DNA of 49,532 nucleotides from contig JACRPH010000028.1 in assembly GCA_016214025.1 (NCBI GenBank), forward strand, positions 1 through 49,532, given 5' to 3'. The notes beneath the pieces were generated by a model, which saw only the letters and a program-made list of their open reading frames with translations, did not search any database and was not told where the DNA came from. This DNA is from Candidatus Woesearchaeota archaeon (GTDB lineage: Archaea > Nanobdellota > Nanobdellia > Woesearchaeales > GW2011-AR9). A program made the translations under genes and the position numbers. Below are positions 5,019 to 37,842 of the stretch, in pieces. How positions within the stretch are numbered: position 1 is the stretch's first letter; every line of letters starts with the position of its first letter.

Positions 5019-5666
5019 TTACGATTTTACCACCTTCTTCCAATCTTCCAGGAACTTCTTGATTCCGCTGTCAGTTAAAGGATGCTTCATCATCTGCTCG
5101 AGCACTTTAAATGGGATGGTAGCAATATGCGCCCCACACAAAGCTGCTTCTTTGGCATGAAGAGGATGCCTGACACTGGCCACTATCACTTCCGTCTTAA
5201 ATCCATAATTCTTGAACATCGTAACAATCTCCCGCACCAATTCCATCCCATTGTGGCTGATATCATCTAACCTGCCCACAAACGGGCTGACATAAGTAGC
5301 TCCTGCTTTCGCTGCCAGCAGCGCCTGATTGGCAGAAAATATCAACGTCAAGTTAGTTTTAATCCCTTCGGTGGTAAGTTGTTTCGTAGCTTTCAATCCT
5401 TCAGCGGTAAGCGGAACTTTAATTACGATATTAGGATGTATCTTAACCAGCTCTCTGGCCTCTTCCAACATCCCTTCTGCTTTCAGGCTAATCACTTCAG
5501 CAGAGATAGGCCCATCAACGATAGAACAAATCTCTTTAACTACCTCTTCAAAATTTCTTCCTTCTTTAGCTATCAGAGAAGGATTGGTAGTAACCCCATC
5601 AATAATTCCCCAACTATTAGCAGTCCTAATCTCTTCTACATTAGCCGTGTCGATAAATATTTTCAT
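5019..5666 (-). CDS. tal: Small-type transaldolase / fructose-6-phosphate aldolase
   Basis: [24 protein letters not shown] (Schiff-base Lys), [29 protein letters not shown] and AASVRHP. GAGGTG RBS. Confidence 0.95.
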
Positions 5667-5769: not shown

Positions 5770-6957
5770 TCAATGGGCATCATTATACTGTTTTTTCATC
5801 TTTTCCGATTGAAGCAATCCGGAAATAAAATCCGAAGTAGTGGGAACACACCCCCTTACCGCAGTTCCAAAGCTTTTATTTTTGTGAACCGCACAATTAC
5901 CAAACAGTAAAGCCTCAGGATTAATTTCTCCGGAATAATCTCCCAATACCATCTCTTTACCGGCTAGAATAGATAGAAGTTCAGGCCTCTGAGTTTTTAC
6001 TTTTTTAAAAGAAAGGTATAAAGCCCCTAAACAGCTGCTGCAAGCCTGTCCGTCTTTGATAAATACTTGATATTCTTGTTCTAAACTTTCTGTTCCCGGT
6101 GGCTGGCTTTTAAATTTTGTTGAAAAAGATGAAATCTCCCCTCCAATAATCTCCAGCTCCGAAGGAATCAAAGATATATCTCCCCCACTCCCCCTTTCCG
6201 CAGCCAATCTCAGGTGGTCTACAGAATAAGGCTCTAAGCCCATGATTTTGGCACAGGCATAATCTGCCGCAACCAAATCTACCGAAGCTGCCAGAACCTT
6301 TCCTTTCTTAGGTTCATCTAATTCACTTCCTAAGATTCCATCAACTAAACCCAGAGTTGGAGGAAGGCAGCTCATTAGGTCAGCTAAAGCTGGAGCGATT
6401 CCCAGATGATGAAATCTTTTTTTATCTGCATCTTTTAATAGCCCTTTAAGATTTTTAATAGTTCCGGAAATGCCGCTGACATAATTCGTCTTAAGTTTTG
6501 CCAGGCTGAAAAGGTAATCTGCGGAAAATATCTCGGTGGGGATTTTTATTTTTTTCAGAATTAAACCATTATCTATTTTTACCTCCTGGTACCGGCTTTT
6601 CTTAAAATCAATTAATTCTACCGAAAGCTCTTCAGCAATTTTGGCAATGCCGGTGGAGCGGTAAGCGGAACTTGTATCTATCCCTACACTGGAAGATTCT
6701 CCTATCTTCACCGCAGCGTCGGCAGACTGTAATAATTTGATTGTTCCCCGAAGAACCTGCGGATGAGTGGTTCTTCCTTCCTCAGGTAAAAAAGCTTCGG
6801 TGCAATTAGGTTTTAATAGAACTTTTTTGCCACTAACTAGCTCTAAGATCCCAGAAGCAGAAAGCACTTCTTCTAACTTCGAGTGTATTTCTTCAGGATT
6901 ATAATTCTCCTGTTTAACCAGAGCGACTTTAATCATGGGATTAGTTCCGTTAACCAT
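5770..6957 (-). CDS. DUF362-family Fe-S protein
   Basis: KVLLKPNC, TTHP, IGESS, SLAKLKT, TIKNLKG and DLVAAD, plus C-terminal CSSC, GNCA and GCVP cysteines. Confidence 0.85.
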   Translation of the reverse strand: MVNGTNPMIKVALVKQENYNPEEIHSKLEEVLSASGILELVSGKKVLLKPNCTEAFLPEEGRTTHPQVLRGTIKLLQSADAAVKIGESSSVGIDTSSAYRSTGIAKIAEELSVELIDFKKSRYQEVKIDNGLILKKIKIPTEIFSADYLFSLAKLKTNYVSGISGTIKNLKGLLKDADKKRFHHLGIAPALADLMSCLPPTLGLVDGILGSELDEPKKGKVLAASVDLVAADYACAKIMGLEPYSVDHLRLAAERGSGGDISLIPSELEIIGGEISSFSTKFKSQPPGTESLEQEYQVFIKDGQACSSCLGALYLSFKKVKTQRPELLSILAGKEMVLGDYSGEINPEALLFGNCAVHKNKSFGTAVRGCVPTTSDFISGLLQSEKMKKQYNDAH

Positions 6958-6964
6958 AGAATCA

Positions 6965-8068
6965 TTATAGGGTCAGTTCCAAAGCCTCCTTTGCTCTAAG
7001 ATAAGCACCGTGCAGATTAGAGCCGGCCAGATCATGTGACAATCTGGGTGGACAAGCAACCCTTTTCTGCAAAAGGCTCTTCTGCAGCTCTTTTTTGAAG
7101 CAGCTAAAAGAGTTCATGATTAATCCACTTAAGCAGATTTCCGGAAAACCATCCAGATGGCCTTCTTCCCGGATTATTTTTTCGGTCTCGGCAATCCCAT
7201 AACCCAGAAAATAACCTAATAGCTCAAAAGCTGCACGGGCATAATAATCTCCGGATTCGGCGAAGCGGCTTAAGCTTTTGGCGATGCTTCTTTCGTTGAA
7301 GTTAGGGTCAAGCTCATTTTTTTGATGGGGATTTTCTTTTTGGAATTGGCTGATTTTATCATGATACCATTCTTCTAACATCTCCAGCCTTCCGGAAAAT
7401 AACATCTCCAGAAGTGTTTTCATTCCTGTAGCTGAAGCTATTTTTCCAATTTTAATATTTTCTCTGCTCCTGATTACTTTTTCTAAGCCTTCTTTTTCTG
7501 CCCCATATCTCAATAATTGGTGATAGATTTCTGATTTTGGCAGAGCGATTCGCAACCCTAAATCATTCGGAATGGGATTATCCTGCTCGGAAAATGGGCG
7601 GCCGGGATTAAAGCGGGTCTGGTAGGGCAAATTTCCTGCGGAATCAACATAGGCACTGCCAACGCCGAAGCCGACTACGACATACAAAAATCCGTTCTCT
7701 CCAGGCTTGAAAAAAGTTTTTTCGCTAAAAGCTCCGCAATCAGCATCATTATCAATAGTGACAATCTTTGCATCTAATTCTTTCTGGAAAAAAATTGGCA
7801 GGTTGAATTTTTCTAAAGAGGTTAAGACTGTGGAGCGGTATAAAGAGCCATCTGTGGCAATCAGTCCGGCCATACTTAAGCCGATGGCTTCCATCTTCTC
7901 TTTGGAAAAACTTTTTATCTTATTCAGTAAATCGGTTTTAGCTTTCTCCAAGCCGCAATCACGATAATCATGGTGCCAGAGAGTTTCTTTTTCTATTTGC
8001 TCTCCAAAATAAACCCTGGCTTTAACTGCGGTTCCTCCTAGATCCAAAGATAATATTCTGGGTTTCAT
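6965..8068 (-). CDS. ROK-family kinase (divergent)
   Basis: LSLDLGGT, IGLSMAG, IDNDADCGAFSE and VGFGVGSA. The ExGH and Zn-Cys motifs are absent. GGAGG RBS at 8078-8082. Confidence 0.8.
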   Translation of the reverse strand: MKPRILSLDLGGTAVKARVYFGEQIEKETLWHHDYRDCGLEKAKTDLLNKIKSFSKEKMEAIGLSMAGLIATDGSLYRSTVLTSLEKFNLPIFFQKELDAKIVTIDNDADCGAFSEKTFFKPGENGFLYVVVGFGVGSAYVDSAGNLPYQTRFNPGRPFSEQDNPIPNDLGLRIALPKSEIYHQLLRYGAEKEGLEKVIRSRENIKIGKIASATGMKTLLEMLFSGRLEMLEEWYHDKISQFQKENPHQKNELDPNFNERSIAKSLSRFAESGDYYARAAFELLGYFLGYGIAETEKIIREEGHLDGFPEICLSGLIMNSFSCFKKELQKSLLQKRVACPPRLSHDLAGSNLHGAYLRAKEALELTL

Positions 8069-8070
8069 TA

Positions 8071-8166
8071 AGATTTAACCTCCACTAAGATTTGCTTCTA
8101 CCAACAAGGGGCATAGATTCAGATTTAACATTCGCTAAGATTTGCTTGTACCAACAATGGGCATAG
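8071..8166. repeat. Imperfect tandem duplication (period 50 nt) of the 3' end of the ThiC-like gene
   Basis: 8071-8116 versus 8121-8166 match at 41/46 nt. They encode LCPLLVEANLSGG* and LCPLLVQANLSEC*. Confidence 0.9.
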
Positions 8167-9219
8167 CTCCATACATTTATTGCAGCCTTCTTTCTCTGAA
8201 TGTTGGTTGCAGCTCTTTCTTATGCCCCTCTGCTCCGTGATTTTTCTGTCCTGCTCCATGAGCTCAGGCAGCCGGCACAAATCTCCGGCATGGACGCTGG
8301 TAAGAGTGGCTTTAATTCCCTCGATAGTGTCTTGTAAAGTAGGGAAGCCCACATGCTCTCGCGGTGGAATAGTAGTTATCTTTCCCACATTATACATGGC
8401 TGCAATAGCCGCTCCGCTGGCTGCGGCGTACTGGTCGCAATTAGAATTAACTTCTGTTACTATCGGGCCGAGCATCTGGAAAGGAACGTAACTCCCGAAA
8501 TCTTCCCGAAGCTTATCTATTCCCGGGCCGATGTCCCTCAGCGGCTGGTGGCTCATGGGCTCAACGATAGCCCGCACGCCATATTCATCTGCCCTGCGGA
8601 ACATTTCCATCTGCTGCTTTAATTCCCATTGGTGTGCAGAATCATAGGCTTCAGTAATTCCGCTAGGGCGAAAAGTAGAGCCAATATGCATAGTGACATG
8701 GTACTCCCTGAATAAAGCAAAAATATTGTTGAGGATTGGCCCATAAGGGTTATCCACTTTATTTTTCATCATGTAATTCAACAGCACCCCTCCCTGCCGG
8801 CTGGTAGTGGGAAAAGCTCTGCCCTGGACGACTGCTAAATCTTTTAATTTCAGGGGAACTAAATTCAAAGTCATATAATCAGCTCCCTGAAGAACTGACC
8901 ATTCTATCTCTTTCCACAATTTTTCTGGTGCAATCTCTCCCTGGTTTTCTACTGCAACTAAAATCGGAGCAACCTTTCCAAAGGCGATGTTCGGATAGTG
9001 TTCTTTGCCGTATATCCATAAAGCCGGGGACATCCTAACTGTACTTAGGTCAATTATAGTGTGCACGCCCAGCTTGGCTGCTTCTCCAATTTTCTTTTTC
9101 TCGGCTTCGACCTGCTCTAGATTATTTGCGCCCACAATAAGATTTACTTTGGTCTCCAGCCCTTCACCTACTTCTATTCTTGCTGAGTTCAGCTTGTTTC
9201 CAATGCAGATGCGTTCCAT
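8125..9219 (-). CDS. Divergent ThiC/BzaF-family radical SAM enzyme (probably not a canonical HMP-P synthase)
   Basis: Collinear ThiC motifs: SRQGG (SRGG), GSTFRPSG (GDGLRPG), VEPMSH (EGPGH), GPIVTE (GPLVTD), PPREHVGFP (PAEHLGLP), HAGDL and a C-terminal CNKCMELC cluster motif. 364 aa. Confidence 0.8.
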   Translation of the reverse strand: MERICIGNKLNSARIEVGEGLETKVNLIVGANNLEQVEAEKKKIGEAAKLGVHTIIDLSTVRMSPALWIYGKEHYPNIAFGKVAPILVAVENQGEIAPEKLWKEIEWSVLQGADYMTLNLVPLKLKDLAVVQGRAFPTTSRQGGVLLNYMMKNKVDNPYGPILNNIFALFREYHVTMHIGSTFRPSGITEAYDSAHQWELKQQMEMFRRADEYGVRAIVEPMSHQPLRDIGPGIDKLREDFGSYVPFQMLGPIVTEVNSNCDQYAAASGAAIAAMYNVGKITTIPPREHVGFPTLQDTIEGIKATLTSVHAGDLCRLPELMEQDRKITEQRGIRKSCNQHSEKEGCNKCMELCPLLVQANLSEC

Positions 9220-9425
9220 TATCTCCCATCATGATATTTTTGGTGAGGTGAATTAAGATATTCGCTTCTGGTTAATTCTCTAACTTCCCCCGTGTGAGGA
9301 TTAATTTCCAAATAGGCTCCATTTCTGGTATTATCCACAAAAATTTCTTCATCAGAACCTTTTCCTCTTCTACGATAGGCTGAAATTACTTCTTCTGCAA
9401 CGGTATCATCTAATGTTTGGGCCAT
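9219..9425 (-). CDS. Small hypothetical protein
   Basis: 68 aa. Its stop overlaps the ThiC-like start, and a GGAGG RBS lies upstream. Confidence 0.65.
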   Translation of the reverse strand: MAQTLDDTVAEEVISAYRRRGKGSDEEIFVDNTRNGAYLEINPHTGEVRELTRSEYLNSPHQKYHDGR

Positions 9426-9457: not shown

Positions 9458-11002
9458 TTATATATTATTCAATACCTCGCCCAGCCCTTTTTCCAAGCAG
9501 GTATAGCCTCCGGAATGAATCTTCTGCAAAAAGTCCTCTTTTATCTCTCTTAAACTTCCGGCGGTTTTCCCTTCAAACACCAATGTAAATTTCTGCGGGT
9601 CGTTCTTAGAGCTGCGGAATACCACTGAGCGATAATCTCCGCAGGTGCTCTCTATACGCACATCGTCTCCTCTTATGATAGAAATAAAATTATCTCTGTC
9701 TTGGGCGTAAGACTCAGTTAAGTATCTTATAATTTTTTCAATCTCTGGCTTCACCTGGTTTACTTCCTCTCCCTTTCTGTAAGTATATCTAATCTCACCC
9801 GAGGTTTCATATTTGGGAAGCGCTGCTCTAAGCTCACTGAGTTTCTTCCCTTTCTCATTTAATATTTTACCCAATAAGAGCAGAGTAAACAGCCCATCTT
9901 CTCCCGTATCCACAAAATAAAACGGCTTCCCGGCTAATTCCCGGCGATAAAAATAATGGCCGCTAAGCTCTCCGGCAAAAACAATAGATGGATCTTTAGC
10001 CATGGTCTCTTTAATATATACTCTGCCGGTTTGCTCTCTTACCAGTTCACCGCCATTGTCTTCAACTATATCTTTCACCAATTTGCTGCTTTTTATCTCC
10101 GCCACCACTTTTGATTTTTTTTGATGATGTTTATCTTGTTTTTTATCATCTGGAGCACAGCGCTCGGCGGAGATTAGATAGCTGGCGATTATCGCCGTAA
10201 CTTCATCTTCAGAAACAATTTCGCCCTGGTCATCAATAAATTTTACCCGGTCTCCATCCCCATCAAATGCTGCTCCAAAATCCAGATTGAAGCTCTCCGT
10301 TACAGTTTCTATCAGATGCTCCAGATTTTTTTCTTTGTGCGGGTCGGAGCTGTATCCTTCCAAATCATCCGGAAATCCACGTATTCCATTATGCAGGAAT
10401 TCATTGCAGATGATGGTATGGCCGCAGGAGCGTAATACTTCTGCAGCATAATCCGAATAAGCTCCCCATAAGGGGTCTATAGCTACGGTGAGCTTTTCTC
10501 CTCCGCCAAAACCCTGCTGGAGCAAAGCCTGGTAGAATTTCTTTACATCTTTGCCATAGGCACGAATACTTTTTGAATAATCCTTTCTTCTATCTTCACC
10601 ATCTCCATCACTGTCTCTATTCTTAATGATGTTTATCTTGATGCCATTCCACTCCCAAGAGCTGTGCGAAGCGGTGATTACCGCTACTGCATCTGCACCA
10701 TATAACTCCAGTCCAGCATAAGCCAGAGGTGTAGGCAGATTATGCCCAAGGTCGATTGTGTTTACATCATGCTGGCATAGCCCTTCCCAAAACCGGTGTT
10801 TCAGTGCCGGAGTAGTTACTCTCCCATCTCCTGCTACTACTATCCGGCGCTTGTCTTCTTGTACTAATCTTTGGCCTAAAGCAGAGCCTAACTCAAAAAA
10901 ATCCAAGAGAGCCCTTTCTCCCACTTTAATCCTTTGGTCAAATCCAAAAGTGTAATTGTCTAATATTTTTTGTGGGTTTATTTCTGCCATTTTAAGCATC
11001 AC
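9458..11002 (-). CDS. Phosphomannomutase/phosphoglucomutase (alpha-D-phosphohexomutase family)
   Basis: ITASH (phosphoserine loop), FDGDGDR (metal loop) and GELSGH (sugar loop). Confidence 0.92.
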   Translation of the reverse strand: MMLKMAEINPQKILDNYTFGFDQRIKVGERALLDFFELGSALGQRLVQEDKRRIVVAGDGRVTTPALKHRFWEGLCQHDVNTIDLGHNLPTPLAYAGLELYGADAVAVITASHSSWEWNGIKINIIKNRDSDGDGEDRRKDYSKSIRAYGKDVKKFYQALLQQGFGGGEKLTVAIDPLWGAYSDYAAEVLRSCGHTIICNEFLHNGIRGFPDDLEGYSSDPHKEKNLEHLIETVTESFNLDFGAAFDGDGDRVKFIDDQGEIVSEDEVTAIIASYLISAERCAPDDKKQDKHHQKKSKVVAEIKSSKLVKDIVEDNGGELVREQTGRVYIKETMAKDPSIVFAGELSGHYFYRRELAGKPFYFVDTGEDGLFTLLLLGKILNEKGKKLSELRAALPKYETSGEIRYTYRKGEEVNQVKPEIEKIIRYLTESYAQDRDNFISIIRGDDVRIESTCGDYRSVVFRSSKNDPQKFTLVFEGKTAGSLREIKEDFLQKIHSGGYTCLEKGLGEVLNNI

Positions 11003-12686
11003 CTCTGTTTTTGTTACTAAACAAATAGCTTAGTAGTATTCCGTCAAAGACTGCGCCTAGCCCTACCAGATTGCCGACGGGATAACCTACATTAGCAGCA
11101 ACAGTTTCAATGATTCCATTAGCTAAATGCCCTCCCGGATGAACAAATCTTACGAAGAAAGGGCTTTCCTGCCGAGAACGAATGTTTTGGGAATAATTCC
11201 GAACCGCCGTGTCATTGGGATAAATTCCATTTTGGTAAATATAAGTAGTTCCGTCCACTGCTAATTCCAGGCTCTTTTTTAGGTAAGCCGCTAAATCAAT
11301 ATTCTGTTCCGAAGTAATAATATTTTCAAATGTCCCAAAAGAACCAATAACTGCTCCCTCTGCGGAATGGCAAATCATTAAGCCATCACCAAAATCCGTC
11401 CCGGCTCCAAGTTTTCTTAGCTTATCTCCCAGAGGAATAGTTACATCTCCCCCAAAAAGCGCACTATAAATGCTGTTTAACTCAGCATCATTCATCGAAA
11501 CAATGTCTGCTTCTTTGATAATATTCCAGTATTCTTTGATTTCTTTGGGGTCATTCTTAAAAGAATTGGTCCCGATGAATATTTTAACACTGATATCTTT
11601 TTTCAGATATTCCTCTTTTAATTTCTGAATCTCTTTCATCAGGGCGCTATATTCTTTTGGCGAACCCTTATTCAATCCGCCTAAAGCTACTACCACTGTT
11701 TTTCCGGGAGCGCTTTTTTCGTCTATGATCCCTTTTAAATCCTGAATGTATTCCTGGTAATTAATTGTGCCTTCATACTCCCCAATTCTTTTTTCTAGTG
11801 ATTGCAGCGACTGATCAAAATTGGTGTTGCCATGGCGGTATTTCTTTCGGACAGAGCCGTCTTGGTCATTTAAATTAGGAAGAGATTGAATTTCTTCTAA
11901 TTCCTGGCAATCCTCTTCCAAGCTGTGATGGCAGCCACTTAATTCTCTCTTCAGGTCACGAACATACTTTTTGATTTTTTCCCTAGGAGAAGAGTGATAT
12001 TTTTTAATTAAATCTTCTAATTCTCTTAAAATTTTAGGAGGATTATTTTTTTCTGAGGAGATAGTTTTTCTAAAAGCATTGATTTCCGCCTCAAAACTTT
12101 TTTCTTCTGGATCTTTAGTCACCAGTTCTGTCAGCAGGCGGCCGTCTTTGTTAGACAATATTAACTTGTATTTTCCCACTTCCAAGCCCAGGGTTAGTGA
12201 TTTTTTTTTAATGGGGCGGGCATGGCTAAACAAATCAGCCAAACCAGGAGACCTTTCTGTGAGATACTCCTCTACCGATTGGGTCTTAAGCCCGCAATAA
12301 TAAATTTCAGGAAAGCCTTTTAACCGATTTTTAAGATGGTGTCCACCAATCGCAGAGATCGCCGGGCTGCCCCCTGGCTGAATAGAACTTACTAAATATT
12401 TTTTATGGCTTTCGCTTTCAATAGCCTCGATGGCCTTTTCGAGTTCATCTCCTTCAATTTTAATGTCTCTGGCCGGCTCCTTATCCACATTTAGGCCGTG
12501 CTCGATGATTTCATTAAAGAGGGGATGGCATTCTTGAAGAATGTTTTTGCTGATAAAAGATTTCAGCAACTCTCTTAGCTCTTCCATACGAAAAGAATAG
12601 TTATGGTCAATTGTGCATTGGGTGCCCCAGACAATAATATTGCCATTGCTAAACTGTTTTTCTTGATTGATTATTTCATGATTCAT
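10992..12686 (-). CDS. ADP-dependent glucokinase/phosphofructokinase-like protein, divergent
   Basis: PGGSPAISA (GGNA-like), SMNDAEL (NExE-like), CHSAEG and NLVGLGAVFDG (the family VGxGD with Asp replaced by Ala). A charged helical insertion lies in the middle. Confidence 0.6.
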   Translation of the reverse strand: MNHEIINQEKQFSNGNIIVWGTQCTIDHNYSFRMEELRELLKSFISKNILQECHPLFNEIIEHGLNVDKEPARDIKIEGDELEKAIEAIESESHKKYLVSSIQPGGSPAISAIGGHHLKNRLKGFPEIYYCGLKTQSVEEYLTERSPGLADLFSHARPIKKKSLTLGLEVGKYKLILSNKDGRLLTELVTKDPEEKSFEAEINAFRKTISSEKNNPPKILRELEDLIKKYHSSPREKIKKYVRDLKRELSGCHHSLEEDCQELEEIQSLPNLNDQDGSVRKKYRHGNTNFDQSLQSLEKRIGEYEGTINYQEYIQDLKGIIDEKSAPGKTVVVALGGLNKGSPKEYSALMKEIQKLKEEYLKKDISVKIFIGTNSFKNDPKEIKEYWNIIKEADIVSMNDAELNSIYSALFGGDVTIPLGDKLRKLGAGTDFGDGLMICHSAEGAVIGSFGTFENIITSEQNIDLAAYLKKSLELAVDGTTYIYQNGIYPNDTAVRNYSQNIRSRQESPFFVRFVHPGGHLANGIIETVAANVGYPVGNLVGLGAVFDGILLSYLFSNKNRGDA

Positions 12687-12764: not shown

Positions 12765-13823
12765 CTAATTATTTAAAGTTCTAAATGTGTTTATTTCAAA
12801 CGTATTAGGATGAATTACAACTTTGTTCCCTTTGATTTCTCCTCTTTGGCCTGTTTTTAGGTCTAGTCCGAGAATTTGGAAAGCTGCTTCATATTCTTTA
12901 ATGGGAAAAATGTGAGTAATAATTTTTTTAAAGTCTTGATTATGCCGGAGCATTTTAATGACCGGAGCAAAAGTCAAGTTGGAATCAATTGATCCGATGA
13001 TGCGAATTCCATTATCAGTAAGGTGCGACGGTTTAATTTTGGCTTCGGAACTGTAATCCAATCCCGTAATTAGAATGTCTCCTCCGCGGTCCACGACTTT
13101 GATGAGCTTTTCTAGCGACTTTCCACTAGTATCAATCACCAAATCAAAACGCCTGACGGAATTTATCGATAACAAATCATTATTTTTGTAATTCTGCACG
13201 TCGGCAAATAACAACCGAGCTTGCTCTATGCGGTAGTCGGAAACTTCTCCAATAGTTACTTCACAACCCATAGAACGTGTCGCTAGGCCAAAAAGAAGGC
13301 CTAAAGGGCCTGCCCCTACAATTAGCACCCTGAACTCGGGCCTGATTTGGGTCTGGCGTAAAGCATTCAATACGCAGGCTAAAGGTTCAACCAAAGTTGC
13401 TTCCTCAAACGAGAGGTCGTCGGGGAGATGATGCAGAAAAGAAGCATTTACTACGTGATATTCCACAAAAGTCCCATTATGGGATACGCCAGTTTCGGTA
13501 TGATGTTTTTCTGCGCAATAATTTGGCCTGTCGTTTTGACAATAAAAACATATACCGCAATGGTAGGTTGGATCAAGAGCGACTCTATCGCCAGGTTTTA
13601 CATTTTTCACACGCGATCCGACTTCTTCCACAATCCCTGATGATTCATGCCCCAGGATAATTCCGGGCTGGGCAGGATACTCTTTTTTAAGAATATGGAG
13701 ATCTGTTCCGCAAATCCCCGTTGCTTTTACTTGTATGAGGACATCATTGTCGCTGCTGAGGGTTGGTTTAGGAATGTCTACAATTTCTAATATCTCACTC
13801 TCATTAAAAATTAGCGCTTTCAC
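12765..13823 (-). CDS. Zinc-dependent (MDR) alcohol/polyol dehydrogenase
   Basis: GICGTDLH, ILGHESSG, CGICFYC...NYC (structural Zn) and GAGPLG (NAD binding). Confidence 0.93.
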   Translation of the reverse strand: MKALIFNESEILEIVDIPKPTLSSDNDVLIQVKATGICGTDLHILKKEYPAQPGIILGHESSGIVEEVGSRVKNVKPGDRVALDPTYHCGICFYCQNDRPNYCAEKHHTETGVSHNGTFVEYHVVNASFLHHLPDDLSFEEATLVEPLACVLNALRQTQIRPEFRVLIVGAGPLGLLFGLATRSMGCEVTIGEVSDYRIEQARLLFADVQNYKNNDLLSINSVRRFDLVIDTSGKSLEKLIKVVDRGGDILITGLDYSSEAKIKPSHLTDNGIRIIGSIDSNLTFAPVIKMLRHNQDFKKIITHIFPIKEYEAAFQILGLDLKTGQRGEIKGNKVVIHPNTFEINTFRTLNN

Positions 13824-13844
13824 AGGTATGCCTCGCGTTTATAT

Positions 13845-14846
13845 TTAATTTTGCCATTTTAGTTGATTCCTTATCTTTCCATGTAATTCCGAATTAGATG
13901 CAGCAATAATAGAACATTGCCCTTTTATGCTCTTGTCTGTAATGAGAGACAATTTGTCCAGAGATTCCCCGTAAGCATCAGTAACAATCCCGCCCGCTTT
14001 AATCAAAATGAAAGCTGCGGCAGCTATGTCATACGGAAAAAGAGTAGCGATTTTCCCGCGTCCTACCTTTAGAAATTCTTCTGCCGTTTCGGGATAATCC
14101 TGAACGATGCGGTGGCCAACATCTACATGGGCATCCAGTTGCCCGGTAACAATTCTCGTTAACGAATACGATGAGCTCGTAAACACAAAAACTGCCCCCA
14201 AGGTTACAGAGTTGTCAATTAAGTCTCCGCAGACTTTTGTGATTTGTTTTATTGGATGGGCAGTAAGCTCAGTACTCCAAAACATCTTTTCCAGATCGGC
14301 TTTCTCGGTAAGCGAGGGCAACCCTAAAACAGAGCTTGTAATTTTTGGCTGATTGGCATCGGCATAGAAGTACTCACCGCTTTTTAACTCAAGCGCGAGA
14401 GCATTTGTGATTTCACTAAACTTTGGATAAGATGAATATGGTGTTACGGCAACGGAAAAGCAGCAGCTTTCAAAGTTGACCATTGCCGGACGCGTGCCAT
14501 CTATGGGATCAATGATGAGCAGCCATTCTGGTTTTTCATGGAAACAGACCAGGCCGCGATCCTCAGAGAAATAAGCAATAGGTAACTTCCATCTTTTTAG
14601 AACTTTTTCTACCGTCTGTTCTGCCACTTCATCCAGCCCAAAGTGCGGGTCTCCACCGTACTGGCGTCCAATGATTTCTCGCTTATTGTCATTTAATCTG
14701 GGCAAAATTGCTGCCCTTACTTCATTGCCTAGTTTAATCAGTTCTGTCTTCATGACAAATTCTTCATCAATGCTAACTGAATCTTCACTTATATTATCCA
14801 TATTACTCCTATTATTCATATTATTCATATTATTCATATTACTCAT
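13845..14846 (-). CDS. Inositol monophosphatase/FBPase (FIG superfamily) phosphatase
   Basis: DEVAE, YFSEDRG, IIDPIDGT, QLDAHVD and PYDIAAA motifs. The start is placed at the ATG overlapping the aminotransferase stop; several in-frame ATGs follow. Confidence 0.88.
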   Translation of the reverse strand: MSNMNNMNNMNNRSNMDNISEDSVSIDEEFVMKTELIKLGNEVRAAILPRLNDNKREIIGRQYGGDPHFGLDEVAEQTVEKVLKRWKLPIAYFSEDRGLVCFHEKPEWLLIIDPIDGTRPAMVNFESCCFSVAVTPYSSYPKFSEITNALALELKSGEYFYADANQPKITSSVLGLPSLTEKADLEKMFWSTELTAHPIKQITKVCGDLIDNSVTLGAVFVFTSSSYSLTRIVTGQLDAHVDVGHRIVQDYPETAEEFLKVGRGKIATLFPYDIAAAAFILIKAGGIVTDAYGESLDKLSLITDKSIKGQCSIIAASNSELHGKIRNQLKWQN

Positions 14847-14847
14847 A
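14794..14847. repeat. 9-bp in-frame tandem repeat, 6 units (3 perfect TTATTCATA)
   Basis: Units ttatccata, ttactccta, ttattcata x3 and ttactcata. On the minus strand it encodes MSNMNNMNNMNNRSNMDN. Confidence 0.9.
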
Positions 14848-16086
14848 TTTATCCCTCTCAGATATTTTATAAATTTCATTTAAGATGCCATCTAAGACTT
14901 CAAAAGCGTATTGCAATTGTGCTGGCGTTATAATTAAAGGAAGCTGTAGCATGAGAGTATTTCCTAGATGCCTGCACTTAGAATTAGCAATGATAATGCC
15001 TTTCTCCAGCATTTTTAATACAATCAAATCTGCAGTTTTAGGGTCAGGGTTTCCGAACTCATCAACTATATCAATGGCCCCTTTTACTCCTATACATCGT
15101 GCCCCCCGTAAATTTTTGTATTTACTTTCTAGGCCAAGCAATGGGTTTTTAATCTGCTGGCTTAAACTATTAACATTTTTCAAGAGCGGTTTTAATTCTT
15201 CCAGATAAGCTAAGCCTGCTGCCATACTAACCGGACTATGACCAAAGGTAAAAGAGTGCTCACCTGGCTGAAAAGAGAATTCATCTTTGTAGATAGTGCC
15301 GGCCAGAGGAAATCCGCCACCTATGGCTTTACCAAATACCAAAATATCCGGAACCACTTCATAATCTTCGCATAAAAACATCTTTCCCATGCATCCAAAA
15401 GCGGTTTGGACTTCATCTACAACCATAACCACATCATACTTATTGCATAGTGCTCTCACCCCTTTTACGAATTCTTTGTCCAAAATTTTGCATCCTGCAT
15501 TTCCCTGAACCAACTCGATTATAATAGCAGCCGGATTTTCGCACTTTATTTTCTTCTCTATATCTCCCAGGTCTTTCTTGACTTCTACGCCATTTGTAAA
15601 GTAATTGCTATATTTACTGCCCGGCATTTTCCAGCTGATCCCCATTGTGGCTAAACTTCTACCATGGAATCCGTCTTCAAGATACAATATCTTAGACCGG
15701 TTTTCATACTTATTTACCGCTAATTTCATTGCTCCTTCAACTGCAAGGCTCCCATGTAAAACAAAATTCACTTTGTTTAATCCTACCGGGGAGAGTTTGA
15801 TTATTTCCCGAGCTAACTTTGATTTTTCTTCTGTAGAATAAGCTGTTCGCAGATGGGTAATTCTGGTTAGCTGTTCTCCAACGGCTTTAATTATCTTTTC
15901 ATTGCTGTGTCCTAGAGGCATAGACCAGGTTTGTGAGAATAGATCTAAATACCGCTTGCCCTGAGCATCCCATAAATAAGCACCCTCTGCTTTTTGAATC
16001 ATAATGGCTTCTGAGCCAATCATGCTTCCTTCACATAGATGATGAAATTGAACCGATTTGTTTTCTGAATTCATTTTTACAACCAC
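14839..16086 (-). CDS. Class-III PLP-dependent aminotransferase
   Basis: GSLAVEGA, FHGRS, ELVQG, VVDEVQTAFG, DILVFGKAIGGG (PLP Lys) and HSFTFG. Confidence 0.95.
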   Translation of the reverse strand: MVVKMNSENKSVQFHHLCEGSMIGSEAIMIQKAEGAYLWDAQGKRYLDLFSQTWSMPLGHSNEKIIKAVGEQLTRITHLRTAYSTEEKSKLAREIIKLSPVGLNKVNFVLHGSLAVEGAMKLAVNKYENRSKILYLEDGFHGRSLATMGISWKMPGSKYSNYFTNGVEVKKDLGDIEKKIKCENPAAIIIELVQGNAGCKILDKEFVKGVRALCNKYDVVMVVDEVQTAFGCMGKMFLCEDYEVVPDILVFGKAIGGGFPLAGTIYKDEFSFQPGEHSFTFGHSPVSMAAGLAYLEELKPLLKNVNSLSQQIKNPLLGLESKYKNLRGARCIGVKGAIDIVDEFGNPDPKTADLIVLKMLEKGIIIANSKCRHLGNTLMLQLPLIITPAQLQYAFEVLDGILNEIYKISERDKYE

Positions 16087-16090
16087 AATT

Positions 16091-16423
16091 TCACATTGGT
16101 TCTACTTTACATACTCGCCTATCGATGATTTGATACCGCTGAATGCCGGCTTCTAATTCCGATGAAAGCTGCTTCTCTTGATGCTCCCAGTACTTGATAC
16201 AAATATGTTCTTCATTCTCCAAACAACCTTCTAATCCTTTTGGGGTAATCTTCTCTAGAACCAAGATCACTCTCTTCTCTTCTGTAGGGGTTACACTTTC
16301 ACATTCATAGTCCCTTCCGCTAAAATATCCGGTGGATTCAGAGACTATAACTGCTACTTTCTCTCCCACGTACTGGGCGTATTGCTCATATTCCGGTTTC
16401 GTTTCAGCAAGAGCCATTTTCAT
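16091..16423 (-). CDS. Hypothetical protein in the operon
   Basis: 110 aa, GGAGG RBS, overlaps the Lrp gene end and lies 4 nt from the aminotransferase start. Confidence 0.65.
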   Translation of the reverse strand: MKMALAETKPEYEQYAQYVGEKVAVIVSESTGYFSGRDYECESVTPTEEKRVILVLEKITPKGLEGCLENEEHICIKYWEHQEKQLSSELEAGIQRYQIIDRRVCKVEPM

Positions 16424-16871
16424 TTGCCTCCTTCCGATGAGCCATGAACTCTTCCCTTTTTAGTTCTTCAATCACGTTGAGCATCTGCACTTCTGAGCTG
16501 AAATCTTCCTGCAGCTTTCCCAGAAAATCAGTAACCTCTTTCTCATCCCGAAAAATACATTCTACCAAGTAGTCATATCCGTAATTGATCCTGAACAAAG
16601 AATTTACCGAGCTGTGCTGAGCCAGAAAGTCTTTCAGTTCCTGCTTTTTGCTCCCATTTGATTTTAACACCAAATAAACGCTTTTGAAATATCCTAACTG
16701 AGTGAAATCTACCAGTGAAGTGTGCTTTTTGATAAGCTTCTGCTCATAACGCCGAAGCTTGCTGTAAAGAGTAGTAACCGGAAGATTCAGCTTCTTCGAC
16801 AACCCCACTATCTTAATACGCGAGTTTCCCCGCAGATGACGAATAATTTCAGTATCTTTTTCTGACAGCAT
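16404..16871 (-). CDS. Lrp/AsnC-family transcriptional regulator
   Basis: LSEKDTEIIRHLRGNSRIKIVGLSKKLNLPVTTLYSKL (HTH) and INYGYDYLVECIF (RAM domain). The start is placed at the Met at 16871. Confidence 0.9.
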   Translation of the reverse strand: MLSEKDTEIIRHLRGNSRIKIVGLSKKLNLPVTTLYSKLRRYEQKLIKKHTSLVDFTQLGYFKSVYLVLKSNGSKKQELKDFLAQHSSVNSLFRINYGYDYLVECIFRDEKEVTDFLGKLQEDFSSEVQMLNVIEELKREEFMAHRKEANENGSC

Positions 16872-16898
16872 TTCAACCACACTCCTTTTGATACATTC

Positions 16899-16932
16899 TT
16901 TTTCAACACCCACAATTTTTCAACACCCACAA
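16899..16932. repeat. Exact 17-bp tandem duplication just upstream of the lrp start
   Basis: TTTTTCAACACCCACAA occurs twice in tandem. Confidence 0.85.
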
Positions 16933-35649: not shown

Positions 35650-35931
35650 ATGGAATGGGATTTAAATGCGTTTATTATCAGAAGTGGTTATCGAAAGAAA
35701 GTATTTTTTGAACTTTCTAAGCCTCAAAGACCATCTCAAATAGCCAAAACTTTAGACCTGAGAATTACCCATGTTACGAGAGTACTAAGAGAATTAAAAC
35801 AGAAAAACCTAATTAAATGTCTTAACCCAAAGGAATCATTTGGAAGGTTCTATGAATTAACTCCTAAAGGGGAAAATGTTCTGAAAGAGGTAAAAAAATT
35901 AACCCAATCTTACGATGGTAAACGATTATAA
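35650..35931 (+). CDS. Small winged-helix regulator (controller-like) heading the R-M operon
   Basis: RPSQIAKTLDLRITHVTRVLRELKQKNLI...YELTPKG. Confidence 0.85.
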   Translation: MEWDLNAFIIRSGYRKKVFFELSKPQRPSQIAKTLDLRITHVTRVLRELKQKNLIKCLNPKESFGRFYELTPKGENVLKEVKKLTQSYDGKRL

Positions 35932-37081
35932 TCAAAAATATGTGGAATTTGCTTCTAATATTCATTTCTACGAATTTTTGCTAGATGAATTTAAAAAACC
36001 ACACTTTGAACTAGAAAAATATTCACCGGAGATTAGCAAACTAGAGGTTAAAACTAATTGGGATGTAATCGCATTGAGTAATTTTCTGAGAACACATCCA
36101 AAATCATTTGATCTATTTCAAGAGATTTTTCAACTAACAAGATTTACAAATACTCAGCTAACTCATTTTTTATTTGATGTGGCCTTATTAAACAATGCGA
36201 ACAAAAACATCTTAAAAAAATATTTAATAAAAAACCTAGAAGATGATGAATATTTCTATAAAAAGTATATCTCGGAATTAAAGAGGAATAAAATTGAAGT
36301 TGATTCTAACAATTTAATTAATGTAATCAATGACAATGAGGTTTTATTTGATTCATTCATCTGGATATTCAAAAGTGTTGTTTCTAGGTATGTTTCAGAT
36401 AGTGTAGCCAAAGTGGAACTATTACATAATAGGTTATCAAAAGAGGCATTTAAAGATGTATCTGAAAGAACTGCTAAATATTTAATGGGTAATTTAAAGT
36501 TAAATAATATCTTAAAAGGAATAGATATTAAAGAATTTCTTTTAAATAAGAGAATGGGTATTGATACCAAATCCCTCCATGGAAAATTTGGTAACATAAA
36601 AATAAAAAACATTTTAGAAAAACACAAACTAATTAATGTCGATGATATTTTTAATGAATTGGGAATAAAGAAATTACCTCGAAAATTAACTAATCCTCAA
36701 TTAGAAAAGTATGCTAATCAAATTATTTATGTGACCGAGAAATATTTAGACGGGATAAGTAAAAGAAAAGATAACAAATTAAAAAAGTTTGATTTTATTA
36801 TTATTTATAATTTAAAACCAAAAATACTCATCGAAACAAATTTTTATTCTACTTCTGGCACCAAAATAGGAATTAATCAAGGAGAATATGTAGATTTAAA
36901 ACAAGATATTGAAAAATTATCTGATAATTATATCTTTTTATGGATTACAGATGGAAATTATTGGCTGACTTGTGATGGACATTCCAGATTAATTCACTTG
37001 TACACTTACTTTGGTGATCAAATTTTGAATTATAACCTTTTTGATAAAAAATTGTTCGAATTAACTGAAAAATTACAATGA
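35915..37081 (+). CDS. DpnII/MboI-family type II restriction endonuclease
   Basis: KKFDFII, ILIETNFYSTSGTKI and FLWITDGNYW match the DpnII-family catalytic region. Longer N-terminus than DpnII. Confidence 0.8.
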   Translation: MVNDYNQKYVEFASNIHFYEFLLDEFKKPHFELEKYSPEISKLEVKTNWDVIALSNFLRTHPKSFDLFQEIFQLTRFTNTQLTHFLFDVALLNNANKNILKKYLIKNLEDDEYFYKKYISELKRNKIEVDSNNLINVINDNEVLFDSFIWIFKSVVSRYVSDSVAKVELLHNRLSKEAFKDVSERTAKYLMGNLKLNNILKGIDIKEFLLNKRMGIDTKSLHGKFGNIKIKNILEKHKLINVDDIFNELGIKKLPRKLTNPQLEKYANQIIYVTEKYLDGISKRKDNKLKKFDFIIIYNLKPKILIETNFYSTSGTKIGINQGEYVDLKQDIEKLSDNYIFLWITDGNYWLTCDGHSRLIHLYTYFGDQILNYNLFDKKLFELTEKLQ

Positions 37082-37842
37082 AAACAACTCATAAAATAAT
37101 AATAGGAGATGCAATAGAAGAATTAAAAAAAATTCCGACAGAATCTATAGAACTAATTTTCGCTGACCCACCTTATAACCTGTCCAAAAAAAACGGACTT
37201 GGATGGAAGTACTCAAAACACGTTACAATGCAGGAAGAATGGGATATGTTTTCGAAGGATGGCTATTATAAATTCAATAAAGAATGGATAAAAGAAGCTT
37301 TACGTGTTTTAAAACATGGGGGTAGTTTATGGATCTGTGGAAGTTTCCATAATATTTATCAGGTAGGGTTTATCTTGCAACAAATTGAGGATGTAAAGAT
37401 AAATAATTCAATTGTATGGTTTAAGCCTAACGCTCAACCTAATATCACTTGTAGAATGTTTACGGAGTCTACTGAGCATTTGATATGGGCATCTAAAAAT
37501 GGCAATAATCAAAAATGGACTTTTAATTACGAAGATACTAAGAATTTGATTTTTGATAATATCAATCCAAAAGGAAAACAAACAAGAAATGTTTGGAGTA
37601 TTGCATTAACTCCAAAAAAAGAGAAATGGGCTGGGGAACATCCTACACAAAAGCCAGAGGAATTGTTGAGAAGAGTTATTTTAGCTTGTACTAAACCGGG
37701 AGAAACGGTTTTAGACCCTTTTGTTGGTTCTGGAACTACTTCAGTTGTTGCTAAAAGATTAGGAAGAAATTCTATAGGTATTGAAAAAGAAGCTAAGTAT
37801 CTTAACATAATTAATAGAAGATTAGAACAACAAAACCTCTAA
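37078..37842 (+). CDS. Beta-class N6-adenine/N4-cytosine DNA methyltransferase (DpnA-like)
   Basis: FADPPY precedes HPTQKPEELL and VLDPFVGSGTT (beta motif order). ATGA overlap with the REase gene. Confidence 0.93.
   Translation: MKTTHKIIIGDAIEELKKIPTESIELIFADPPYNLSKKNGLGWKYSKHVTMQEEWDMFSKDGYYKFNKEWIKEALRVLKHGGSLWICGSFHNIYQVGFILQQIEDVKINNSIVWFKPNAQPNITCRMFTESTEHLIWASKNGNNQKWTFNYEDTKNLIFDNINPKGKQTRNVWSIALTPKKEKWAGEHPTQKPEELLRRVILACTKPGETVLDPFVGSGTTSVVAKRLGRNSIGIEKEAKYLNIINRRLEQQNL

Follow-up and report, generated by a model that had tools for sequence, protein, structure and literature searches.

A ThiC-like gene of DPANN archaea and CPR bacteria belongs to a distinct clade with retained cofactor residues and a rebuilt substrate pocket

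The reaction of ThiC has been called the most complex radical cascade so far identified for any enzyme (PMC11117688), and the ThiC family is regarded as specific for aminoimidazole ribotide (AIR), from which it makes hydroxymethylpyrimidine phosphate (HMP-P) for thiamine and hydroxybenzimidazole for B12. Here we describe a ThiC-like gene in a stretch of 49,532 nucleotides (nt) from a Candidatus Woesearchaeota archaeon (contig JACRPH010000028.1 of assembly GCA_016214025.1), which we call the window. The gene had been singled out in an earlier reading made from the DNA letters alone (the sequence-only reading), which proposed a new subfamily that differs in its substrate or its product.

Results

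The ThiC-like gene, its fold and its clade

8125..9219, reverse strand: the ThiC-like gene, 364 amino acids (aa), ATG start; a non-canonical radical S-adenosylmethionine (SAM) enzyme by homology
9219..9425, reverse strand: doubtful 68-aa open reading frame (ORF), its TAA stop sharing 1 nt with the ThiC-like ATG

The 364-aa ORF recognized in the sequence-only reading proved to be real: a GGGAG Shine-Dalgarno-like sequence lies immediately 5' of its ATG, and the alignments of its clade homologues begin at residue 1. The 68-aa ORF has no family match, and blastp and tblastn found nothing corresponding to it in the related loci; for the latter reason we regard it as doubtful.

The ThiC-like protein is a member of the ThiC_Rad_SAM superfamily by its fold, profile match, cluster motif, second-metal site and SAM contacts. 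It matches Pfam PF01964 (ThiC_Rad_SAM) at 180.3 bits against a cut-off of 25 over residues 11-332, covering positions 47-374 of the 420 in the profile, and HMMER aligns it to the crystal sequences of Arabidopsis thaliana (At) and Caulobacter crescentus (Cc) ThiC with an E value of about 1e-25 and 26-28% identity. A template-free AlphaFold (AF2) model made from an alignment of 36 homologues (predicted local distance difference test score, pLDDT, 93; predicted template modelling score, pTM, 0.91) has ThiC structures as all of its 13 best fold matches in the PDB, with template modelling (TM) scores of 0.82-0.84 over the query and root-mean-square deviations of 2.2-2.5 Å, and IspG, aminomutases and other TIM barrels follow far below. 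The canonical Radical_SAM domain PF04055 has no match in the protein, whose sole Cys cluster is C-terminal and which carries no N-terminal CX3CX2C motif.

Scores against the equivalog models of ThiC fall well short of their cut-offs: 184 versus 410 bits for NF009895 and 162 versus 460 bits for TIGR00190, the two short-form ThiC models, and 116 versus 650 bits for NF006763. For the BzaB model TIGR04386 the score is 141 bits, with the cut-off at 700. An alternative, that the protein is a true HMP-P synthase evolving rapidly in small-genome symbionts, would agree with ThiC models being the best Pfam and NCBIfam matches, with the intact cofactor machinery described below and with the name 'phosphomethylpyrimidine synthase ThiC' that public pipelines (NCBI, JGI) give to several clade members; yet all of these ThiC scores are below half of the equivalog cut-offs, and the pocket residues, to which we return, speak against it more directly.

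A search of 5.8 billion proteins yielded 63 relatives besides the window protein, at 46-85% identity and 281-702 bits, below which the score drops to 132 bits and 31% identity at the first canonical ThiC. An exhaustive HMMER scan of 1.84 billion 50%-cluster representatives found only two from this clade, besides several hundred other ThiC-family proteins. The gene is present in 6 of 185,579 GTDB species representatives, labelled Nanoarchaeota, Pacearchaeota, a 'Methanosarcinales' bin, Parcubacteria, Shapirobacteria and a 'Planctomycetota' bin, and a metagenome scan added 22 further loci. A neighbour-joining (NJ) tree built from 150 full-length sequences of the superfamily recovers the clade as monophyletic in 40/40 bootstraps, gives it a stem of 0.49 substitutions per site and a group carrying Met449 as its sister, and puts it outside the canonical Asp383/Tyr449 ThiC/Bza group; nesting within ThiC or BzaF clades, which the sequence-only reading had named as the observation that would count against it, was not seen in this tree, which holds no labelled BzaF, BzaA or BzaB sequences. 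Identity to the window protein separates two sub-clades, one that we call DPANN-type (at least 62%) and one that we call CPR-type, after the Candidate Phyla Radiation (46-56%). Full-text literature searches returned no description of such a ThiC-like clade.

Retention of the cofactor-binding residues

8794..8802, reverse strand: S140-R141-Q142, equivalent to Ser342-Arg343-Gly344; phosphate anchor and adenine contact kept, Gly replaced by an invariant Gln
8668..8679, reverse strand: S181-T-F-R184, equivalent to Asp383..Arg386; Asp383 replaced, R184 kept
8548..8562, reverse strand: E220-P-M-S-H224, equivalent to EGPGH, with E220 for Glu422 and H224 for His426 (HMMER alignment, codon check)
8353..8358, reverse strand: E288-H289, equivalent to At Glu489/His490; invariant in the clade and in canonical ThiC
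8161..8211, reverse strand: C-terminal Fe-S loop C337-x8-C346-x2-C349-x3-C353-P354 (codons checked)

Residues were compared by aligning 36 members of the clade with 9 canonical ThiCs and AtThiC, with At numbering for ThiC residues, whose roles in contacting SAM or 5'-deoxyadenosine (5'-dAdo), the metals and AIR come from crystal structures (PMC4389238). Despite an overall identity of the clade to ThiC of about 27%, eight cofactor-contact positions are invariant in 36/36 sequences: Gly230 (G30 in the ThiC-like protein), Leu259 (L58), Arg343 (R141), Arg386 (R184), His426 (H224), Glu489 (E288), His490 (H289) and Pro494 (P293). In ThiC, Glu489 is a ligand of the 5'-dAdo ribose, His490 is one of the two second-metal His ligands and Arg386 bridges the SAM carboxylate and the substrate phosphate (PMC4389238), while His426 is a second-metal ligand and Glu422 acts on the substrate 2'-OH in diol activation (PMC4389238, PMC11117688). 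The phosphate anchor is also largely kept, in the form of Ser342 (S140), the Arg343 backbone and Arg386 (R184), as is Glu422 (E220). HMMER alignment and codon check thus agree with the sequence-only reading on the metal-binding His of EPMSH (H224) and of PREH (H289), the counterpart of PKEH in ThiC, on the Glu of EGPGH (E220) and on the Fe-S motif CNKCMELC (C346, C349, C353).

The three ThiC-type cluster ligands are C346, C349 and C353, with CX2CX7C spacing in some clade members, and all four Cys of the loop as well as P354 are invariant in 36/36 sequences. That the CX2CX3C motif is present stands, but its use as a departure from ThiC does not: short-form canonical ThiCs share it (e.g. CSMCGKMC), so that it is not diagnostic, and we rejected it as a distinguishing mark. 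The crystallised long-form ThiCs have CX2CX4C (PMC4389238). The fourth invariant Cys of the clade, C337 of an 'SCN' motif, lies 8 residues ahead of the cluster motif, and the sister clade likewise has an upstream 'SC', but at another spacing. One may speculate that C337 is a fourth cluster ligand or that it replaces the lost Cys483 (see below) as a hydrogen-atom donor.

A protein that performs no radical SAM catalysis, in which four Cys fully ligate the cluster of a redox, sensor or structural partner or of a non-radical TIM-barrel enzyme, would be in keeping with C337 beside the three cluster ligands and with the loss of the catalytic Cys of ThiC. We consider this highly improbable, as the invariance of the SAM/5'-dAdo contacts and of both second-metal His in 36/36 sequences is hard to explain without SAM chemistry, and the variable distance of the extra Cys in the sister clade suggests that it is not a fixed fourth ligand. 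Since the cofactor machinery is under strict purifying selection, the ThiC-like protein is, as judged from these residues, most likely an active ThiC-type radical SAM enzyme.

Replacement of the AIR-binding and catalytic residues

9136..9138, reverse strand: I28, equivalent to Asn228; invariant Ile (alignment, codon check)
8863..8865, reverse strand: N119, equivalent to His322, a phosphate ligand in ThiC; invariant Asn
8476..8478, reverse strand: Q248, equivalent to Tyr449; invariant Gln
8374..8376, reverse strand: T282, equivalent to At Cys483/Cc Cys474, the essential catalytic Cys of ThiC; invariant Thr

The contacts to AIR have been replaced, and the replacements N228I, H322N, G344Q, D383S/A, Y449Q and C483T are fixed within the clade, this signature being seen in all 64 sequences retrieved. 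At position 383, 30 of the 36 aligned members have Ser and 6 have Ala, the latter being natural 'D383A' variants. In ThiC, Asn228 is the ligand of the substrate 3'-OH and Tyr449 stacks on the C5-amino group of AIR (PMC4389238); Asp383 is the acid that protonates the AIR imidazole. In the mutants D383A and N228D of AtThiC and C474S (equivalent to At Cys483) of CcThiC, AIR is still consumed and 5'-deoxyadenosine still made, but no HMP-P is formed (PMC11117688). No clade member keeps any of Asn228, Asp383, Tyr449, His322 and Cys483, the AIR-binding and catalytic residues of HMP-P synthases. With the aminoimidazole-binding and -protonating residues gone, and the Cys that forms the thiyl radical gone as well, the ThiC cascade is ruled out.

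Two of the changed segments pointed out in the sequence-only reading, SRGG to SRQG (S140-R141-Q142-G143) and GDGLRPG to GSTFRPS (G180..S186), were confirmed by HMMER alignment to the crystal sequences and by codon check. The third, GYDH to NCDQ (the N259-C260-D262 region), holds for the DPANN-type sub-clade but not for the CPR-type, which keeps (E)YD(Y/H)I. Four replaced catalytic positions come in addition to that list (N228 to I28, H322 to N119, Y449 to Q248 and C483 to T282). Position 286 and the GYDH loop distinguish the sub-clades from each other, and DPANN-type and CPR-type enzymes may use related but different substrates.

These residues bear on the idea of a divergent HMP-P synthase introduced above: the mutation-sensitive positions D383, N228 and C474 are Ser/Ala, Ile and Thr in all 64 members, and the replacements are invariant in archaeal and bacterial hosts alike, which argues for selection for another function and not for drift. 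Such a synthase would moreover be unaccompanied by thiD, thiE or thiG or by a thiamine pyrophosphate (TPP) riboswitch, both in the window and across some 30 related loci. We therefore hold this explanation to be very improbable, and the public name 'ThiC' of the clade members is probably wrong.

Absence of thiamine and cobamide genes

Pfam scans of about 48 of the 50 listed ORFs of the window (those of at least 110 aa and the 68-aa ORF) disclosed no thiamine or cobamide genes, and neither thi genes (thiD/thiE/thiG) nor cobamide genes were found in about 30 related loci. In Rfam scans no family reached its gathering score in the window and none appeared at E<=1 across the operon, hence no TPP riboswitch. 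The statement of the sequence-only reading that the window holds no other thiamine or cobamide genes and no TPP riboswitch thus survives both scans. A passage in one source (PMC7567580) describes DPANN and CPR lineages as lacking de novo nucleotide synthesis, and on that description AIR should be scarce in such hosts.

A 5-hydroxybenzimidazole synthase of the BzaF or BzaA/BzaB type, which would make the lower ligand of a cobamide, belongs to the same superfamily, and TIGR04386 is among the four NCBIfam matches. The score of 141 bits against a cut-off of 700, the loss of the AIR-contact residues, the lack of cobamide genes nearby in Pfam scans and the position of the clade outside the canonical Asp383/Tyr449 group make this scarcely credible. 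We conclude from cut-offs, pocket and catalytic residues, tree and context that the ThiC-like protein lies outside the HMP-P synthase and Bza families. Together with the monophyly of the clade and its sugar-phosphate and nucleotide neighbours (see below), these results support the proposal of a new subfamily differing in substrate or product.

The gene array in the window

12765..16913, reverse strand: window-specific upstream genes (AsnC-type regulator, 110-aa ORF, class-III aminotransferase, IMPase/FBPase-like phosphatase and a Zn-dependent, sugar/threonine-dehydrogenase-like ADH; gaps of -41 to +78 nt)
10992..12686, reverse strand: ribokinase-superfamily, ADP-dependent-kinase-like protein, 564 aa with an insert of ~140 aa (from the fold of a homologue)
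9458..11002, reverse strand: phosphohexomutase-family (PGM/PMM/GlmM-like) protein, 514 aa, three PGM_PMM Pfam domains
6965..8068, reverse strand: divergent ROK/ASKHA sugar-kinase-like protein, 367 aa (PF00480 at 32.6 bits)
5770..6957, reverse strand: DUF362 protein, 395 aa (PF04015 at 137 bits)
5019..5666, reverse strand: fructose-6-phosphate aldolase (TIGR00875 at 346.9 bits, above the cut-off of 245.95)
18411..19337, forward strand: AbrB/MazE-fold and PhoU-domain regulator (Pfam), kept near the cassette in 6 DPANN-type loci

The ThiC-like gene is the ninth of 12 genes in a closely packed co-directional array, which starts at 16913 and ends at 5019 and whose genes are spaced by -41 to +103 nt. 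Its order begins with the AsnC-type regulator, the 110-aa ORF, the aminotransferase, the phosphatase and the Zn-dependent dehydrogenase, and continues with the 564-aa protein, the phosphohexomutase-like (PGM-like) protein, the 68-aa ORF, the ThiC-like protein, the ROK-like protein, the DUF362 protein and, as the last gene, the fructose-6-phosphate aldolase. The aminotransferase, phosphatase and dehydrogenase were considered as an amino-sugar module, but this trio is not conserved in other loci and was left out of the core evidence for that reason. Promoter and terminator scans gave counts at the level of shuffled sequence, with a bacterial consensus that is uninformative for an archaeon.

The PGM-like protein carries the motifs TASHS, DGDGDR and GELSGH; it scores below all NCBIfam equivalog cut-offs, and its PDB relatives are PMM/PGM enzymes (E 5e-22). 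The PDB relatives of the ROK-like protein are beta-glucoside, glucose and GlcNAc kinases. DUF362 belongs to the same Pfam clan as the N-terminal domain of the racemase LarA (PMC11770544), and the DUF362 protein, whose C-terminal tail is rich in Cys (CSSC ... C ... C), could serve the radical enzyme as an Fe-S redox partner or could itself be an epimerase. Pfam, NCBIfam and PDB sequence searches all left the 564-aa protein without a match, and PDB sequence searches with the DUF362 protein, the nucleotidyltransferase (NTase) of the CPR-type loci (see below) and the 564/430-aa neighbour (profile) were empty or marginal. Only a fold search placed the 430-aa homologue of the ADP-kinase-like protein, whose AF2 model has archaeal ADP-dependent phosphofructokinases and glucokinases (PFK/GK) and adenosine kinases as its best folds. 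The insert of ~140 aa in the 564-aa window copy looks coiled-coil-like and is missing from the 430-aa forms.

Two recurrent gene contexts

We compared gene contexts in a census of about 33 non-redundant loci. In DPANN-type loci the most frequent neighbour is the ROK-like gene (9 loci), followed by the PGM-like (7), DUF362 (6), AbrB-PhoU (6) and ADP-kinase-like (5) genes. The DUF362 gene is next to the ROK-like gene in all 6 of its loci, and in its 5 loci the ADP-kinase-like gene adjoins the ThiC-like gene or lies one to several genes upstream. In one DPANN genome, the PGM-like and ADP-kinase-like proteins are fused as a single 911-aa ORF (L004 4475-7210), which is a Rosetta-stone link between the two; the same cluster also holds an acyl-carrier-protein-like (PP-binding) gene.

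Several individual loci extend this picture. A PF00483 sugar-1-phosphate nucleotidyltransferase and an NAD-epimerase/dehydratase lie immediately upstream of the ThiC-like gene in L006, a PIG-L deacetylase is found in L008, and L013 has a glycosylation cluster of STT3, GT2, UDP-glucose dehydrogenase and GT1. L019 contains a SorC-type sugar regulator, DeoC and GFO/IDH/MocA oxidoreductases, and L025 a sialate-esterase-like (SASA) protein and a sulfatase. Transposases of the IS110 family and of the DDE type adjoin the ThiC-like gene in two metagenomic loci (L020 6129-7130; L027 526-1836), which is consistent with mobility of the gene. Closely related copies (68-72% identity) occur among genes that are plainly bacterial (L019, L025), and the two observations together suggest that the DPANN-type gene has been transferred between domains. 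The DPANN-type contexts, that of the window included, favour a sugar phosphate en route to a nucleotide-activated sugar.

The CPR-type cassette is nearly invariant, with a Tmk-like gene, the ThiC-like gene, a Pol-beta-type NTase and a NUDIX gene in this order: Tmk-like is upstream in 9 loci, the NTase downstream in 10/10 loci with sequence and NUDIX next in 9/10, and the ThiC-like and NTase genes often have overlapping stop and start codons. We had considered the 313-320-aa downstream protein as a divergent homologue of the DPANN ROK-like protein and rejected this, as it is the Pol-beta-type NTase.

Viperin pairs with CMPK2, a Tmk-family kinase, and the CPR-type order is what a viperin-like, nucleotide-modifying radical enzyme might be found in. 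Such an enzyme would alter the ribose of a ribonucleoside 5'-phosphate (a ribotide like AIR), with the Tmk-family kinase phosphorylating the product or supplying the substrate, and with the NTase and NUDIX proteins using or recycling the product. The Tmk-like protein, at 54.6 bits, is below the dTMP-kinase equivalog cut-off of 83.25 and hence need not be a housekeeping enzyme; the ribose-hydroxyl ligand Glu422 and the 5'-phosphate anchor are kept, and the ribokinase-fold neighbours of DPANN loci include nucleoside-kinase-like folds. On the other side, Asn228, the second ribose-hydroxyl ligand, is lost, the DPANN-type contexts indicate sugars and NDP-sugars rather than nucleotides, and the window has no defence-island signature around the gene, the nearest restriction-modification genes being about 27 kb off. 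PADLOC v2 likewise gave no match for the ThiC-like protein and only weak P-loop, NUDIX or NTase matches for its cassette partners (among them a 21.8-bit P-loop match to VakA), none of them significant. Membership in a known anti-phage defence system is thus unsupported, and we regard a nucleotide-modifying enzyme as an unlikely explanation.

Further ThiC-like relatives and other features of the window

Non-canonical pockets are common among the superfamily relatives, a large group with Thr/Ser/Ala383 and Met449 being one example, and four of these proteins (P0079, P0081, P0085 and P0097) are below the ThiC equivalog cut-offs in an NCBIfam scan. Other short ThiC-like clades among P0079-P0226 have R/G/T/H at position 449, or [T/S/A]383 and M449 with SC...CxRCx3CP, and three ThiC-like fusions of ~700 aa (P0123, P0145, P0209) have a C-terminal half without Pfam match. 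The context of P0079, the closest outgroup, is confined to 3.5-kb contigs and is uninformative apart from a fragment resembling the Cap4 nuclease, a CBASS effector domain, 3' of the gene (L016/L017 2883-3155).

Elsewhere in the window, the following features were noted:

35915-37842, forward strand: DpnII-like restriction endonuclease, then an N6/N4 DNA methyltransferase
within 20348-27060, reverse strand: four consecutive large HEAT/PBS-lyase and TPR repeat proteins of 485-655 aa
17089-18294, 30762-32057, 41291-42433, 45754-46830 and 48112-49422: ATPase_2/STAND/NACHT/AAA_14-DUF4143 NTPases

The restriction-modification module lies in the lowest-GC stretch of the window (28.5% versus about 39%) and looks horizontally acquired. 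The genes upstream of the repeat proteins encode a kinase of the PRK/uridine-kinase-like type, a HAD-IIB phosphatase and a protein of 722 aa without family match. Archaeal NTPases of the ATPase_2, STAND, NACHT and AAA_14-DUF4143 types are unusually dense for a 49-kb window.

Discussion

A proposed phosphorylated sugar-like substrate

The ThiC-like protein keeps the phosphate anchor and Glu422 of ThiC, whereas the acidic and aromatic part of its pocket (Asp, Tyr, His, Cys in ThiC) is now neutral and polar (Ser, Gln, Asn, Gln, Thr), which points to a substrate with a phosphate and vicinal hydroxyls. Its gene stands among sugar-phosphate genes of tiny symbiotic archaea and bacteria, and the protein would therefore probably catalyse a radical reaction, as yet undescribed, whose substrate is sugar-like and phosphorylated. 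In its full form, our proposal is that of an active ThiC-type radical SAM enzyme that acts on a phosphorylated sugar or ribosyl compound other than AIR and makes neither HMP-P nor 5-hydroxybenzimidazole; reading residues and contexts together, we give this an even chance.

By homology to ThiC, the C-terminal [4Fe-4S] cluster (C346/C349/C353) would reduce SAM, whose amino-acid end would sit on the second metal (H224/H289), with further contacts from R141, R184 and E288. The resulting 5'-deoxyadenosyl radical would take a hydrogen from a substrate held by its phosphate (S140, the R141 backbone and R184) and by a hydroxyl (E220). The reaction on the phosphorylated sugar or ribosyl compound would most likely be a radical dehydration, a 1,2-rearrangement or an epimerisation. 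In DPANN-type loci, its partners would be the sugar-kinase-like pair (ROK-like and ADP-kinase-like), the phosphosugar mutase and the DUF362 protein, and the pathway would likely deliver an unusual nucleotide-activated sugar for surface glycans.

Several points weigh against this proposal. What the analysis establishes is the fold, the family, the pattern of residues, the separateness of the clade and its gene contexts; activity, SAM cleavage included, the phosphate-bearing sugar-like substrate, the type of reaction and the role in a pathway are all things that we infer. The invariant C337 could fully ligate the cluster, and the NJ tree lacks labelled Bza sequences. The nucleotide-flavoured CPR-type cassette, which differs completely from that of the DPANN-type loci, is no less compatible with a nucleotide as substrate than with a sugar phosphate. 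Gene context is heterogeneous overall, and the DPANN-type loci L013 and L024-L029 are without the sugar genes. The ROK-like, PGM-like and ADP-kinase-like families are too divergent for specificities to be assigned. In the ADP-kinase-like protein, moreover, a G-[A/L]-G-A motif has an Ala, invariant in 6 homologues, at what we take to be the position of the catalytic Asp of GXGD, with an Asp three residues later, so that this ribokinase-fold neighbour may be a non-kinase member of its superfamily.

The ThiC fold is so far known for two reactions, both on AIR. A more far-reaching version of the proposal is that the clade performs a third, mechanistically different one, in which a SAM-derived radical rearranges or dehydrates a sugar phosphate or a ribonucleotide to a product specific to DPANN and CPR organisms, the clade having been exchanged between domains. 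We advance it tentatively, at somewhat under even chances.

If the proposed activity is correct, the combination of a retained SAM-on-second-metal radical generator with a polar, non-acidic pocket would make the ThiC scaffold a general radical platform, and would present enzymologists with a new problem, a new reaction on a known scaffold. The more far-reaching version would also imply an unknown sugar or nucleotide of ultra-small DPANN archaea and CPR bacteria, destined for surface glycans or serving as a viperin-like modified nucleotide, and would offer a first way into the far more numerous ThiC-like clades that are still uncharacterised. Annotation of these proteins as 'ThiC' would wrongly credit DPANN and CPR symbionts with synthesis of the thiamine precursor in metabolic reconstructions. 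The two tightly conserved cassettes point to a sugar or nucleotide pathway that has gone unrecognised, and the organisms concerned are ones of which neither the metabolism nor the surfaces that interact with hosts are well known.

Comparison with known systems

ThiC itself (EC 4.1.99.17; PDB 4S25-4S29, 3EPM-3EPO) shares with the ThiC-like protein the TIM-barrel catalytic domain and the C-terminal cluster loop (TM 0.84), the Pfam family, the SAM-binding residues, the His pair, the three-Cys motif, the Ser/Arg/Arg of the phosphate anchor and Glu422. The ThiC-like protein differs in lacking about 45 N-terminal residues of short ThiC and in its shorter C-terminal linker, in the replacement of Asn228, His322, Gly344, Asp383, Tyr449 and Cys483, three of which are essential for HMP-P formation, in the extra Cys337 and in the absence of a thiamine gene context or riboswitch.

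BzaF and BzaA-BzaB are ThiC-family paralogues which demonstrate that the family can evolve a second product with the same radical machinery. Bza enzymes reportedly use AIR in work of Hazra and of Mehta from 2015. Superfamily members with a ThiC-like pocket score about 340-520 bits against TIGR04386, compared with 141 for the ThiC-like protein, and Bza enzymes are found in cobamide contexts, of which there is none at the ThiC-like gene. That Bza enzymes still act on AIR is also stated in PMC11117688.

The nearest relatives by NJ, the sister clade (P0079, P0081, P0085; signature x-Y-H-S-R-G-[T/S/A]-R-E-H-M-E-H with SC...CxRCx3CP), resemble the clade in their length of 350-400 aa, their sub-threshold scores for ThiC models, the loss of Asp383 and Tyr449, the extra upstream Cys and the Cys-Pro that follows the motif. 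They differ in keeping His322, Gly344 and Tyr286 and in having Met instead of Gln at position 449, and their identity is about 30%.

Viperin and pVip offer a functional analogy only: there, too, a radical SAM enzyme is paired with a thymidylate-kinase-family kinase of the CMPK2 type, as in the CPR-type cassette, to which sub-clade the analogy is confined. Viperin abstracts a hydrogen from the ribose of a 5'-phosphorylated nucleotide. Its fold is unrelated (a canonical CX3CX2C radical SAM enzyme), and PADLOC gave no match.

The catalytic domain of ThiC is structurally homologous to the adenosylcobalamin (AdoCbl)-dependent mutases, such as glutamate mutase and lysine 5,6-aminomutase (PMC4389238), and lysine and ornithine aminomutases are among the weaker fold matches of our model, at the level of fold only (TM about 0.48). 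These mutases draw their radical from cobalamin rather than from SAM and an Fe-S cluster. The diol activation by Glu422 in ThiC has been likened to that of diol dehydratase (PMC11117688), and the kinship of ThiC to AdoCbl mutases and to diol-dehydratase-like steps fits the dehydration, rearrangement or epimerisation that we propose.

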